This document shows, one piece after another, positions 4,157 to 61,900 of a stretch of DNA of 64,000 nt; the first letter of the stretch is position 1, and the number at the start of each line of letters is the position of its first letter. The position numbers were made by a program, and so were the translations under genes. The notes under the pieces are model-generated. The model was given only the letters and a program-made list of their open reading frames with translations, did not search any database and was not told the DNA's origin. The stretch comes from Dehalococcoidia bacterium (GTDB taxonomy: Bacteria; Chloroflexota; Dehalococcoidia; Plut-88900). The stretch is taken from the NCBI GenBank assembly GCA_965249275.1, contig CBDFLQ010000005.1, positions 640,001 through 704,000 on the forward strand, in the 5' to 3' direction.

Positions 4157-4819
4157 CAGGCGATGGAAGGTCCGGGACTAGAAACCAGGCCGTGGGTTGC
4201 TGCCGAGCCGTCGGCGCCGGGCTGGATTATCCCCACATGTTGTCGGCTGCGGTCAGGGTTGTGTGGGGCAGATCCCTCCGTGAGCGGCACTTGACCGGAC
4301 CGCTGACGGGGAAGATGCCGCCTTAGGCGGACTTTCATAACCGGCGTCCCGGTGCATCCGCCGGATAGACGGATGGCAGGGACGGCGGGACAAACAAGGC
4401 ACGAGGGCCTTGCTAAACCGGGGGTCGGTTGACCTACCGGGAAAACCGGCGCGCAATGGGCCGGGGTAAACGCACCCGATGATGGGGGGCGTTGAATCGG
4501 CAGGGGCGTCGTTGGACGGGGCCTGCCGAGCATAGTCTGTGGATCTTCCATCGCCTGGGTTGCGGGGGAAGGTGAGCCGAGGCCTTTGGTATGAGGAGAT
4601 GGCGGCTTTCGCTTGAGCCGAGGGGCGGCGCTTGGGCCGCCCTTTGGGATGGGCTGGGACGTTGAGTCCTCGGGGCCGGGGATGGGCTTCCCCCTGGGTT
4701 GTGGTTCCTCCTTAGGGTTTAGGGTGAGTGACGAGCTAGTCGGGGGTGAATATAGTACAAGTGTTTTGCTTTAGTCAAGGGGTTCGTGTCACTTTTTGCC
4801 AAGTGGGATCACCCTCACC
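4157..4819. ncRNA. Putative structured non-coding element, copy A (IR-closed multi-hairpin domain 4157-4557 plus conserved leader/promoter 4557-4819)
   Basis: AGGCGATGGAAGGTCC (4158-4173) pairs with GGATCTTCCATCGCCT (4541-4556); many internal hairpins; the flank is homologous to 25557-25832; no conserved ORF. Confidence 0.55.
4749..4778 (-). promoter_or_regulatory. sigma70-type promoter with overlapping LexA-like box
   Basis: Minus strand TTGACT-18-TATATT with AAAC-ACTT-GTAC in the spacer; conserved in copy B. Confidence 0.55.
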
Positions 4820-5152
4820 CTAGCCCTCTCCCATCAGAGGGAGAGGGGACAGGACGCCCCGCCCTCTCCGCCTCCGGGGATGGATTCCGGCTCGGCGGGG
4901 GGTGCGCCTTCAGGAGGGATGGGTTCCTGCCTCCGCAGGAATGACGGGGGAGTGGGGGGTGGGTGGGTGGGAGGCGATCACGTGGTACTGCTCCTATGCG
5001 GGCACCCCCCCGCTCATACTTCGAGAGCCTCCCGCCTCGGCGGATCTTCGACAGCACGATCGGGCCCGCCCGGGCCGTGGATTCGCGCCTGAGGCGTACC
5101 CTCCAGAGGCGAGTGGGGCACTTGCAGCCCGATCGGAGTCTGGAATGACGGG
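4809..5152 (+). repeat. Cluster of REP-like palindromes carrying micro-insertions
   Basis: CCCTCACCCTAGCCCTCTCCC..GGGAGAGGGG (R1), CTTCGA..CTCAGCACGA (R2) and GGATTCC..GGAATGAC (R3) types recur throughout the window. Confidence 0.8.
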
Positions 5153-7719: not shown

Positions 7720-7777
7720 ACCCTCACTCTCCTCGGCGAGTCTTAGACCCTAGCCCTCTCCTGTCAAGGGAGAGGGG
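7720..7777 (+). repeat. R1 REP-like palindrome interrupted by a 21-bp insertion (7728-7748)
   Basis: CCCTCAC[TCTCCTCGGCGAGTCTTAGAC]CCTAGCCCTCTC..GGGAGAGGGG. Confidence 0.7.
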
Positions 7778-24369: not shown

Positions 24370-25083
24370 ATGAGAGACAAGGACGAAATACGGAAGGACG
24401 TTTGGCAGTCGATGAGGGACGCCGGTGTTGCTGCGTTTCCGGGGGCTGTGGGTCGGATACCAAACTTCACGGGCTCGGGGCGAGCACATCTGCAGCTTGC
24501 CGAGTTGGATGTGTGGAAGAACGCCCAGGTGATCAAGTCGAACCCCGACCTGCCGCAGAGGCCACTGAGAAGGCTCGCTCTGGAGCAGGGTAAGACCGTC
24601 TACATGGCCGTGCCCCGGCTCACGCAGGAAAAATGCTTTGTTGAGCTGGACCCGGCGCGTATCAGTGACTACCGGTTGGCGAGCAGCATCAAGGGCGCAG
24701 CACAGCTGGGCAGGTTGGTACACCCTGACGAGATGCGACCAATTGACCTGATTGTCTGCGGGTCGGTGGCGGTGAACAGGGAAGGGGCTCGGTTGGGGAA
24801 GGGAGGCGGGTTTTCGGACCTTGAATACGCTGTTGCCCTGACCCTCGGCCTGATATCTAAGAGTACGCCGATAGTCACTACCGTTCATCCTGTACAGCTT
24901 TTGTCGGAAGAGCTGCCCATGACTCCACACGACATATCTCTCGACTATATTGGCACGCCGGAGGAGTTGGTACGCTGTGATGGGGAGTTCCACAGACCCT
25001 TGGGGATCATTTGGGAGGACCTCGGAGAGAAACTGGACGAGGTGCCCATTCTTCAGGCACTGCGGGCAAGGGAGTTCAGGTAG
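24370..25083 (+). CDS. 5-formyltetrahydrofolate cyclo-ligase (MTHFS/MTHFSD-like)
   Basis: GRIPNF, GSVAV..GARLGKGGGFSDLEY, HD..LD. Confidence 0.88.
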   Translation: MRDKDEIRKDVWQSMRDAGVAAFPGAVGRIPNFTGSGRAHLQLAELDVWKNAQVIKSNPDLPQRPLRRLALEQGKTVYMAVPRLTQEKCFVELDPARISDYRLASSIKGAAQLGRLVHPDEMRPIDLIVCGSVAVNREGARLGKGGGFSDLEYAVALTLGLISKSTPIVTTVHPVQLLSEELPMTPHDISLDYIGTPEELVRCDGEFHRPLGIIWEDLGEKLDEVPILQALRAREFR

Positions 25084-25200
25084 TCTGCCTACGTCGCCCC
25101 TACGGGCTTGGGGTTATTAAGTCCTCCTGAGGCGGACCCTCCAAAGGCGGATGTTCCATCTTCGATTGGGGTTTGGGGGTTTGGTTTGGTTGTTGGGGGG

Positions 25201-25832
25201 TAGGCGATGGAAGGTCCGAGACTCGTGTGCGGGGAGGCGGGAGGCCAGCCTGCGATGACCCCACGTGTCTCTTAGCTAGGCGGACGAGGTGAGTGGGGTG
25301 TTCTCGTCCACAAGACGCTTGGCTCGACCATTCGGAGGAATGGGAGCACGAACCCGCTGCCGTCGTCTACCGAACGGAACTCTCGGATGGTGACGACGGT
25401 GGAGTCCCATAAGGGCTCGATGGCCCTTAGCAAGCCCTGCATAGGCGGGCTGTTATATTTCGCTGGGCTATGCGCATAGCGTTGACTCGAACACTCCGGG
25501 TGAATGGTGCGTCGAGTAGGCTGGTCCCGCACGCCTACATGTTGCTTAGAGTTGATGGACCTTCCATCGCCTGATGGTTGGGGGGGGGTGAGCCGGGGCC
25601 TTTAGGTGAGGAGATGGCGGCTTTCGCTTGAGCCTGGGAGCGGCTAACGCCGCTCTTTGGGATGGGCTGGGACGTTGAGTCCTCGGGGGCCGGGGATGGT
25701 GTTCCCCCTGGGTTGTGGTTCCTCCTTGGCCTTGGGGTGGGTAACTGGCCAGTCGGGGGTGAATATAGTACATGTGTTTTGCTTTGGTCAAGGGGTTCGT
25801 GTCACATTTTGCCAAGTGGAATCACCCTCACC
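25201..25832. ncRNA. Putative structured non-coding element, copy B (IR-closed domain 25202-25572 plus conserved leader/promoter)
   Basis: Perfect 16-bp IR AGGCGATGGAAGGTCC / GGACCTTCCATCGCCT; serial hairpins; flank homologous to 4541-4819. Confidence 0.55.
25762..25791 (-). promoter_or_regulatory. sigma70-type promoter with overlapping LexA-like box
   Basis: Minus strand TTGACC-18-TATATT containing AAAC-ACAT-GTAC. Confidence 0.55.
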
Positions 25833-25877
25833 AGCCTCAGGGATATATTGAGTCCCGCCCACCCGCCCTGTTTTATT

Positions 25878-25918
25878 GACATATCAGCCATGTTGCCCTG
25901 CAACATGGCTGATATGTC
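25878..25918. repeat. Perfect 19-bp inverted repeat with a 3-nt loop
   Basis: GACATATCAGCCATGTTGC-CCT-GCAACATGGCTGATATGTC. Confidence 0.9.
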
Positions 25919-26037
25919 GTTACCAAGGGGGAGGGGAAGGAAGGCGAGGAATGGTGTGAGAGGGCAAGTCCTAGATTCCTCGCGGGGCGTCGGAATGGTG
26001 GGGAGAGGGGGTTGGGTGGAGAGGTTGAGGGTGGCCG

Positions 26038-26378
26038 CGACGGATTGGCATAACGGGGTCGCCACCCCTCTCGACCCTTCGACGGTGCTCAGGGTGAGCG
26101 GCCCCACCCCAGGGATGGATTCCGGCTCTCGGCGGCCGGAATGACGGGAGAGAAAGGGGTATGGGGCTTTCTAGGGACGCGACGGATTGGCAGTGCGGGG
26201 CCGCCCCCCCGCTCGACCCTTCGACGGTGCTCCCGCCTCGGCGGATCTACGACAGGATGAGCGGCCCCTCTCCAAGGATGGATTCACGCCTCGGCGCACG
26301 CCACAGGCGCACCCTCCCGAGGCGGACGTTCCGCTTGCAGCATCTTCGACCGGCTCTCGGGGGCCGGAATGACGGGGG
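26038..26378 (+). repeat. Two tandem R2+R3 composite repeats: first empty, second with four micro-insertions
   Basis: GACGGATTGGCA..CCCTTCGACGGTGCTCAGGGTGAGCGGCCCC..GGATTCCGGCTCTCGG..GCCGGAATGAC present twice. Confidence 0.85.
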
Positions 26379-26492
26379 GAGGGGGTGGGGTTTATGGAAA
26401 GGTCTTAGTGTGTGGACGCCCTCAAGGGGGTATAATATTCTCGCTCCATAGTTCAAGGTTTCCAATTCACCCTTGACCACATATACAAACTT

Positions 26493-27602
26493 ATGGAACG
26501 CCCGATTTTCAAAGCACCCGGCACGCCAGTTGAAGAGCTGGACACGCCTGCCCTGATAATTGATCTCGATGCTCTGGACCAGAACATTGAGACGGTACAT
26601 TCCTTCTTTCGGGGGCAGGAAGCGGGGCTGAGGCCCCACGTCGAGGCGCACCGTTGTCCGGCAATAGCGAGCCTGCAATTGGCCTCGGAGGGGACGGTGG
26701 GGGGGATATCCGTCAACACGGTCGGACTGGCAGAGCATTTCGCCAACGCCGGTATCAAAGACATTTTCGTGGCCAACCCGATAGTAACCGGGCTGAAGAT
26801 CGAGAGGTTGTGCCGGCTGGCGCGACGCGCCTCGATAACCGTATTCGTGGATAACGCACGGAATGCCGAGGCCATCTCCAGCGCTGCATCGTCTCTCGGT
26901 GTCACCATTCGGGCGGTTGTGGGCATAGACACCGGTCTGCACGTCTGCGGAGTCGAGCCGGGGCACGCGGCACTCGACATTGCCCAGGCTGTTGAGCGGC
27001 TTGAGGGCCTTGCATTTGCCGGGTTTGCTACCTACGAGGGTCGGCTTTCATCCAATGACCCTGGCCAGCTAGCCGAGAAATCTCGGGACGTTGCCTCGAT
27101 GTTGGTTGATACCAAGAGGATGGCGGAGGGGTCGGGGCTGAACGTAGAGGTCCTTTCGGCGGGCGGGACGCATAATTACGAGATCATGGGCGCTGTCCCG
27201 GGCATCACCGAGGTTTGTGCGGGGGCCTACGCCCTGCTGGATTGCCGGTACGTGCCCCAACGACCCGAGCTCAGACCCGCGGCCCGGATCATGGCCACGG
27301 TAACCAGCCGCCCGGAGCCGGGCCTGGCCATAACTGACACCGGTCAGAAGGCGGTGGGAGCCGACACGGGCCTCGCCGCTTTGGATGTCGAGGTCAACGC
27401 AACCCTTAAATCGCTCAGCGCCGAGCACGGCAGCCTTACGCTCCACGATGATGAGGCTGAAAAGTTGCATATGGGCGACCACGTCTGGCTTGTCCCATCG
27501 GATATCGGGACGTGCGCGAACCTGTACGACTACATGCACGCGGTGAGGAACGGTAGACTGGAGACGGTCTGGCAGATCACGGGCCGAGGGCTTTACAGGT
27601 AA
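26493..27602 (+). CDS. D-threonine aldolase/DSD1-like fold-type III protein lacking the canonical PLP lysine
   Basis: LDTPALIIDL, DTGLHVCGV, SAGGT, DTGQK, LSAEHG; RPHVEAHR where the family has RPHxKTHK. Confidence 0.82.
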   Translation: MERPIFKAPGTPVEELDTPALIIDLDALDQNIETVHSFFRGQEAGLRPHVEAHRCPAIASLQLASEGTVGGISVNTVGLAEHFANAGIKDIFVANPIVTGLKIERLCRLARRASITVFVDNARNAEAISSAASSLGVTIRAVVGIDTGLHVCGVEPGHAALDIAQAVERLEGLAFAGFATYEGRLSSNDPGQLAEKSRDVASMLVDTKRMAEGSGLNVEVLSAGGTHNYEIMGAVPGITEVCAGAYALLDCRYVPQRPELRPAARIMATVTSRPEPGLAITDTGQKAVGADTGLAALDVEVNATLKSLSAEHGSLTLHDDEAEKLHMGDHVWLVPSDIGTCANLYDYMHAVRNGRLETVWQITGRGLYR

Positions 27603-37398: not shown

Positions 37399-37456
37399 CA
37401 CCCTCACCCTAGCCCTCACGCCTCAGCGCATCTGCGACTCATTGAGGGAGAGGGGA
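37399..37456 (+). repeat. R1 REP-like palindrome with a 21-bp insertion (37418-37438)
   Basis: CCCTCACCCTAGCCCTC[ACGCCTCAGCGCATCTGCGAC]TC..GAGGGAGAGGGG. Confidence 0.75.
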
Positions 37457-46154: not shown

Positions 46155-46401
46155 GATTCCTCGCGGGGCCTCGGAATGACAGGGGTGAAGGGGCTCGGTT
46201 GGGAATCAGGACTACCACGACGGATTAGCTGTCTGGGGCCGCCCCCCGCTCGACCCTTCGAGTGCCTCAGGGTGAGCGGCTCCGCCTCGAGGATGGATTC
46301 ACGCCTCGGCACACTCCAAAGGCGCATCCTCCTTAGGCGGCCGTTAGGCTTGCAGCATCTTCGACCGGCTCTCGGCGGCCGGAATGATCCGCCTAAGGCG
46401 G
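46155..46401 (+). repeat. R3+R2+R3 composite with a triple nested micro-insertion (46301-46365)
   Basis: Same architecture as 26179-26378. Confidence 0.82.
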
Positions 46402-61769: not shown

Positions 61770-61900
61770 GACGGAATGGCAGTCCGGGGCCTCCTCCCCC
61801 CGCTCGACCCTTCGACGGTGCTCAGGGTGAGCGGCCCCTCGCTGGGGATGGATTTACGCCTGAGGCGCACTTGCAGCCCGATCGGGGGCATGGATGACGG
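61770..61900 (+). repeat. R2+R3 composite with a single 22-bp insertion (61856-61877)
   Basis: GGATTT[ACGCCTGAGGCGCACTTGCAGC]CCGATCGG..ATGAC. Confidence 0.78.

Follow-up and report, generated by a model that had tools for sequence, protein, structure and literature searches.

How the smallest mobile DNAs move, among them the small dispersed repeats (SDRs) and the CGTC-tagged REPs, has been an open question since 2008-2013. The locus described here raises it again: the 3' arm of a REP is split by 65 nt made of micro-units lying one inside the other, and a paralogous REP nearby lacks them. Is the unit a mobile element, and by what means would DNA of this size be cut out and joined in? The locus lies in a 64,000-nt stretch that was analysed as a whole (the window, G000:C5:640001-704000) and belongs to source genome G000 (2.9 Mb, 59% GC, 87% complete), the gene content of which points to Dehalococcoidia.

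The triple nest and its empty counterpart

The triple nest (Table 1) belongs to a repeat island that is non-coding and flanked by ORFs 24370-25083 and 26493-27602. Deleting its 65 nt from the filled REP produces the paralogous empty REP (26115-26145) with one substitution. The original prediction of nested 21-, 22- and 22-bp units, controlled by an empty allele, was thus borne out, and all the sites that it listed are present. Sites and unit lengths stood as predicted; a boundary test shifted the outer and middle units by one base. The inner unit (26312-26333) splits the middle one between its two hairpins (offset 7), and the nesting records the order of events, as had been proposed. A further triple had been reported at 46301. 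It is indeed there, but as a copy of the same co-duplicated composite and not as an independent nest. The composite has four co-duplicated copies in G000, of which the two triples of the window are two; inner units with decayed tails are found at 5097 and 46327. Sister genomes G002 and G005 share the triple nest at the orthologous site. Since the four triples of G000 are copies of one composite that is shared in this way, the nest is old and does not testify to repeated triple events.

Table 1. Units, host repeats and related features. Positions are those of the window unless a genome or locus is named.
Feature	Position	Strand	Remark
Triple nest of micro-units, 65 nt (21+22+22)	26285..26349	-	inside CGTC-type REP
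Outer unit, 21 nt	26285-26296 plus 26341-26349 (+ strand coordinates)	-	boundary test
Middle unit, 22 nt	26297-26311 plus 26334-26340 (span 26297..26340)	-	inserted at offset 9 of outer unit
Innermost unit, intact, 22 nt	26312..26333	-	CG-GAA-CG mini-hairpin plus CGCC-N3-GGAG hairpin
Host CGTC-type REP (Ssn-related-motif type)	26278..26373	-	3' arm split by triple nest
Empty paralogous CGTC-type REP, internal control	26115..26147	-	hairpin z-score -2.7
Single 21-nt unit inside GIY-YIG-associated REP, type H3	26232..26252	-
Empty H3-type REP, paralogue of filled copy 26207-26273	26065..26101	-	repeat families D3, D14
Double nest (22+22) at end of longer dispersed repeat	25122..25165	-
Second copy of triple composite	46300..46364	-	inner tail decayed; repeat family D8
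Double nest in CGTC-type REP	5084..5127	-	inner unit decayed
Single 21-nt unit in H4-type REP	5031..5051	-
Single 21-nt unit, tail of DUF559-associated REP	7727..7747	-
Single 21-nt unit, arm of DUF559-associated REP	37417..37437	-
Single 22-nt unit in CGTC-type REP	61855..61876	-
tRNA-linked GIY-YIG cassette	L212 1400-1830 (G002), L200/L210 (G012), L239-L318		recurs in metagenomes

The 1.3-kb repeat island (25083-26400) is wholly missing at the orthologous site of sister genome G003. A longer dispersed repeat is represented in it at 25636-25832, with a paralogue at 4623-4819. An Rfam search returned nothing at the gathering score; six weak miRNA matches (25847-25947) score far below it, and none falls on a unit. 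Elsewhere in the genome, a near-identical pair of UvrC-size GIY-YIG genes was noted (C4:3001-6231 and C7:586651-589881), and the small contig C4 may partly duplicate C7 as a strain variant or through assembly redundancy.

Fold, insertion sites and distribution of the unit

Read on its minus strand, the unit consists of an ab-GNA-b'a' mini-hairpin followed by an x'y'-CGCY-N2/3-GG(C/A)G-yx hairpin. The two hairpins abut, and the ends of the unit meet. What the original prediction described as an 8-9-nt tail is actually a second hairpin, in a unit that folds on the minus strand. Geometrically, the linear unit would amount to a nicked dumbbell, with a four-way junction arising where a filled strand meets an empty one. 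The genome-wide motif scan that had been called for shows that the full unit stands in register in 204 of 2541 hairpin cores of G000, compared with 4-18 when the register is shifted and 3-10 in five block shuffles; 356 cores have the G.A at its fixed register, and the 204 that also have both mini-stem pairs are counted as strict units. With relaxed rules the count is 230, and all units are 21 or 22 nt long. The mini-stem occurs in five paired variants (TC/GA 99, CT/AG 39, TG/CA 27, CC/GG 26, CG/CG 6). The outer pairs of hairpin 2 covary, and G.T wobbles fit on the folding (minus) strand only. This strand is the more stable one in 202 of the 230 relaxed units, the opposite strand in 22. Single units fold no better than shuffles, presumably because the stability of GNA mini-hairpins is missed by standard energy models; the accessible portion of PMC13037366 makes this point and describes GCGNAGC-type mini-hairpins as unusually stable and nuclease-resistant as DNA and much weaker as RNA.

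A motif-free scan for filled and empty alleles, in which the empty allele had to be seen at least twice, yielded 47 events at 21 nt and 35 at 22 nt, with 1 at 19 and 3 at 20. When the hairpin motif was required, there were 45 events at each of the two lengths; no other length up to 41 exceeded 6, and length 44 had 10. The peaks at 23-24 nt were set aside, consisting mostly of insertion-sequence ends and tandem repeats with a few 24-nt inserts of another kind. The 230 relaxed units occupy 139 distinct 5+5-base contexts (78 with an exact empty allele elsewhere), the commonest targets, in the top 45 contexts, being REP arms and tails. The length peaks and the number of contexts agree with the predicted fixed-length, ultra-short and non-autonomous element inserting into other repeats and into itself, and the units are not confined to a few co-duplicated composites. 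Self-insertion occurs at offsets 7 and 9 in G000, and a further site of self-insertion is found in G004 and G007.

The sole conserved junction base is the one preceding the unit, a purine in 225 of 230 cases. Like the last base of the unit, it can pair with x' (covariation over distinct contexts, p=0.07). A one-base target duplication was rejected by 15 to 0: at all the informative sites, defined as those where the base before the unit differs from the last base of the unit, the empty allele keeps the preceding base. The unit has no terminal inverted repeats either, and both absences had been predicted. The proposal that hairpins are targeted stood in part. Most hosts are palindromic repeats, but the idea that insertion always falls inside a stem was discarded, the junction lying in a predicted stem in 61 of 175 contexts, compared with 17-37% at neighbouring offsets.

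Comparison of filled and empty sites between sister genomes, also suggested at the outset, was informative at one orthologous REP (the 26232-26252 site of the window): G000 and G002 carry a 21-nt unit there, and G005 carries a different, 22-nt unit at another site of the same REP. The public read data consist of assembled contigs only, mixed with paralogues, and are uninformative for current mobility. Among side observations, in-frame 21-nt units are present in genes read from their sequence as DnaE (two units), MnmG-like and ValRS-like (G000 C5:342507-346295, C5:719589-721658 and C7:674363-677185), and a separate family of 24-25-nt inserts sits in the tail of the DUF559-type REP (C5:16813, C5:334231, C5:391069, C6:274079, C7:219130 and C7:724341).

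Counted with one pattern, the unit is present in nine of nine genomes of the genus at very uneven copy number (2-110) and has no copies in three other genera of the family. At least three copies were found in 10 of 151 genomes of the class, including G142, a member of another family with 60 units, most of them in tails of REPs of the same type. A scan of GTDB gave at least 121 stretches with matches. Among the matches listed, after removal of 11 Dehalococcoidia loci, ten recognised by title and one by inspection, the y'-y pair is formed in 73 of 115 contexts (about one third expected), and a purine precedes the unit in 65 of those 73. Many of the other matches are chance coding matches; convincing units were recognised by eye, among the matches listed, in Planctomycetota, Desulfobacterales, Acidobacteriota, Ignavibacteriae, Armatimonadota and Lentisphaeria. 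Some of these other-phylum units sit in short tandem repeats and some stand in tandem. Carriage by phages was dismissed, the viral collection giving three matches only.

These data bear on whether insertion took place at all. Filled and empty alleles, and nests as well, might be deletion or recombination products of one longer, much-duplicated ancestral composite. The four triples are after all co-duplicated, many units travel with their host repeat, and deletion remnants exist. Such an origin does not account for 139 distinct contexts in unrelated hosts, for an orthologous REP that carries differing units at separate sites, for the in-frame copies in DnaE, ValRS-like and MnmG-like genes, or for the presence of the unit in other phyla, within repeats that are unrelated; the occurrence across phyla also tells against fragments of one longer known repeat. 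We consider that the contexts, the orthologous REP and the other phyla have largely refuted this reading, which is hardly credible, and that the unit is almost certainly mobile.

Strand polarity and candidate enzymes

Third-codon skew showed the folding strand to be the C-rich strand of the chromosome for 164 of 196 units of G000. The same holds for 73 of 74 units in 20 regions of sister genomes G004 and G007, regions that were picked around known unit clusters and not by skew. This polarity runs against the G-rich composition of the unit itself and has no link to transcription (53 vs 45). As a general rule the leading strand is G-rich, hence our use of "lagging-sense" for the folding strand. 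Unit orientation forms long chromosome blocks in four of four single-contig genomes; replichore counts based on dnaA are mixed (46:19, 38:34, 47:47, 11:24), as are those for marker genes.

The host REPs are polarised likewise: 316:67 for the CGTC tag, 123:20 for H3, 76:2 for H4, 43:2 for the tail of the DUF559 type and 84:9 for the GGAATCT type. Polarity is absent from GTAG REPs (34:27) and from the end of the longer repeat (10:6), and it is reversed in a G-rich control (69:377). In CGTC hosts no unit was found on the opposite strand. Because empty CGTC hosts are themselves oriented 101:8, the polarity of the units is inseparable from that of their hosts and may be inherited from them. Five REP families associated with small GIY-YIG or DUF559 genes are strongly oriented by GC skew; this suggests that non-RAYT REPs spread in a common way, coupled to the fork. 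We regard it as probable that the unit acts as single-stranded DNA coupled to replication.

Replication alone might suffice. In template switching at the fork, a stalled nascent strand would jump to another folded copy, copy the 21-22 nt bounded by its two hairpins and return, with host enzymes only, no dedicated enzyme and no free intermediate. The replication-linked polarity fits such a process, and no enzyme family common to all high-copy genomes emerged among the candidates searched. Tandem unit copies and remnants of 7, 9, 13 and 15 nt exist and show slippage on units. Against this, flanking homology amounts to no more than one purine, length and ends are base-precise across phyla, and a copy number varying between 2 and 110 within one genus is poorly explained by housekeeping enzymes. 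We judge template switching unlikely as the way in which the units spread.

A second possibility is that an HUH (Y1) transposase, of the IS200/IS605 or RAYT type, moved the units in trans by peel-and-paste and was later lost from most genomes. The units follow the IS200/IS605 pattern, as given in the available text of PMC5027513, in that they have hairpins on a single strand, insert 3' of a fixed base without duplicating the target and might form a circle junction; GTAG-type REPs in G000 suggest that a RAYT was once present, and there are Y1 genes in G142 and G134. However, Y1_Tnp was found in none of the six genus genomes searched (87-93% complete), including two single-contig ones with 94-110 units, and the HUH/RAYT-like enzyme of the original prediction found no support. 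Y1_Tnp does occur in two of five genomes outside the genus; the palindromes on either side of the G142 Y1 gene are of other kinds than the unit. The GTAG REPs of G000, as seen above, are unpolarised. Unit junctions lack the site between C and T at which TnpAREP cuts, according to the part of PMC3333891 available, and the active strand of IS200/IS605 is the lagging-strand template (PMC5027513, same portion), which by the usual skew rule would be the G-rich one, opposite to the strand seen for the units. An HUH enzyme thus seems distinctly unlikely.

Movement through an RNA copy and a reverse transcriptase has reportedly been proposed for the SDRs of Nostoc. Wobble pairs (G.T/G.U) would suit RNA as well as DNA, and priming at forks could produce strand polarity. 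For the units described here, however, RVT_1 matches are limited to three of nine genus genomes, two of them those with the lowest copy number, and were not found in six of seven high-copy genomes. Orientation shows no bias to transcription, and the search for a longer template locus produced none. GNA-type mini-hairpins, moreover, are far less stable as RNA in the account available from PMC13037366. Insertion from an RNA template, the other route originally envisaged, is therefore very improbable.

Attempts to find a cognate gene beside the units gave none by clustering of 1336 nearby ORFs. No nuclease gene was recognised by eye among 145 short ORFs next to units of G000, nor any nuclease among the Pfam matches of 126 (of 162) ORFs at 39 hand-picked loci of other genomes. 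Four-helix-bundle genes (PF05635) were eliminated, being present in none of the nine genus genomes. DUF559 was likewise rejected as driver, with strong matches in four of the nine, none in G001 or G004, and a REP of its own with which it pairs.

Within the genus, each host REP family flanks a gene of its own: small GIY-YIG genes stand between CGTC, GGAATCT-type or H3/H4 REPs, and DUF559 genes between copies of the CCCTCTCCC REP. One DUF559 endonuclease gene of G000 (C5:22222-22530, L004) has CCCTCTCCC-type REPs on both sides in a REPtron-like layout that recurs in several other Dehalococcoidia. Other subfamilies of small GIY-YIG genes, in metagenome loci L257-L316, are bracketed by distinct inverted repeats of their own, some of them inside integrase-like genes. 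As described in the accessible text of PMC11893778, the small GIY-YIG protein Ssn binds and cuts one strand of single-stranded DNA only, near CGTC-type hairpins, and its authors propose a REP/RAYT-like history; cutting is shown there, joining is not, and SsnA cuts upstream of its hairpin. The units differ in sitting in the 3' arm of the REP.

A second connection with this enzyme class is a cassette made of a tRNA gene, a small GIY-YIG gene and then a partial tRNA copy, in which the anticodon arm is replaced by CGCC-N2/3-GGCG, the second hairpin of the unit. In L212 the GIY-YIG gene encodes 88 aa (1498-1764). Of 80 metagenome loci, 23 have this hairpin within 150 nt downstream of the tRNA-linked GIY-YIG gene; the corresponding figure for gene bodies is 3 of 80. 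The full two-hairpin unit is present in only one of the 80, and the hairpin could be a passenger there. Close relatives of the protein occur in 4 of 10 class genomes with at least three units, as compared with 10 of 141 others (p=0.007, with related genomes that are not independent). Searches for the gene found none in four genomes that carry 46-110 units by one pattern (G000, G004, G007 and G142), and the GIY-YIG matches of G142 are UvrC only. Nor does the unit bracket the small GIY-YIG genes examined. Altogether, an Ssn-like small GIY-YIG protein is the best enzyme lead, and a tentative one, for the cutter of the unit.

The explanation that we prefer, with slightly less than even confidence, sees the unit as a non-autonomous micro-transposon, of the SDR kind, whose mobile form is single-stranded DNA. 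Both release and joining of the unit would take place at the replication fork, in DNA that is single-stranded or forms a flap, the strand used being probably that of lagging-strand sense. The GNA mini-hairpin would shield the free oligonucleotide, and a single purine would provide the homology for the four-way junction formed by the filled strand. Cutting would be carried out in trans by a small hairpin-recognising single-strand nuclease of the Ssn-like GIY-YIG class, which may come and go through horizontal transfer, and joining by host ligase. A wider proposal appears doubtful to us. It holds that 21-22-nt nicked-dumbbell elements form a cross-phylum class. Their excised form would be a nuclease-resistant oligonucleotide or a mini-circle, and a small GIY-YIG single-strand nuclease, together with host ligase, would insert it into DNA of lagging-strand sense by exchanging single strands at a four-way junction. 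A single fork-coupled system without a transposase, opposite in polarity to IS200/IS605, would then unite the SDRs of Nostoc, the SRM/CGTC REPs, the REPs linked to DUF559 and the GIY-YIG cassettes that split tRNAs. The unit family offers exact ends, a defined fold, a one-base junction rule, strand polarity and named candidate nucleases, all of which make the mechanism testable with short oligonucleotides. If true, the mechanism would provide a programmable, scar-free chemistry for single-strand insertion and supply essential proteins with 7-residue inserts.

Comparison with known systems

The literature searched contained no account of the unit, of its reading as a nicked dumbbell or of the strand polarity; Elhai 2008 itself may already cover the fold or similar families. 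MITEs are short, non-autonomous and dispersed and nest in other repeats, but they have terminal inverted repeats and a target-site duplication; the unit has neither and is several-fold shorter. With REP/REPIN-RAYT and IS200/IS605 systems, as presented in the available parts of PMC3116915, PMC3333891 and PMC5027513, the unit shares a single-strand hairpin substrate, the absence of target duplication and a link to replication. Unlike them, it has no GTAG foot and no cut site, whether between C and T or of the tetranucleotide type, and it is much shorter. Its strand polarity is probably opposite to that of IS200/IS605.

Ssn-related motifs (NTS/SRM, the CGTC-tagged REPs), which are reported without a transposase in the accessible text of PMC3733652, resemble the unit in being strand-specific hairpin repeats and are linked to small GIY-YIG genes (PMC11893778 and PMC3733652, in the portions available). 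An SRM, however, is a CGTC-tagged single hairpin flanking the ssn gene, whereas the unit is untagged, has two mini-hairpins and was not seen to flank a gene of its own. The host REPs at 26115-26147 and 26278-26373 appear to be of the SRM type. The unit is a parasite of SRMs, a form of parasitism of which no account was found in the available portions of the SRM literature (PMC11893778, PMC3733652). By feature tests, the unit is outside SDR5, MITEs, SRMs and RAYT-REPs.

The 21-nt SDRs of Nostocaceae were reportedly described by Elhai et al. in 2008, and self-nesting and compensatory structural changes are said to have been observed in them. Both SDRs and the unit are dispersed, multi-copy sequences of about 21 nt with a covarying fold, precise insertion into other repeats and into themselves, and no known enzyme. 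In the accessible descriptions (PMC4390886, PMC5861425, PMC13756078, PMC2884548), SDR5 is 21 nt long, inserts between bases 3 and 4 of HIP1 and has no known function, and SDRs are not found outside Nostocaceae. Our own inspection of Nostoc plasmid pNPUN01 (354,564 bp) revealed four HIP1-like sites that are split after the third base by a 21-nt insert. We infer these inserts to be SDR5; HIP1-split inserts were found only in Nostoc. All four inserts have a GNA mini-hairpin followed by a small second hairpin, with CGCC-GNA-GGC in three. The plasmid also has inserts of 18 and 25-26 nt beside HIP1 halves, again with a GNA mini-hairpin and a second hairpin (L166 15415 and 18397, L169, L172), which are probably other SDR families. 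SDR5 differs from the unit in sequence and register and in targeting HIP1 instead of REP arms. SDRs, moreover, are reported in Nostocaceae only, whereas the unit occurs in Dehalococcoidia and several other phyla, and for the unit the evidence favours DNA over RNA. Compared through citing descriptions and one Nostoc plasmid, the unit works like an SDR and is an element of the same kind.
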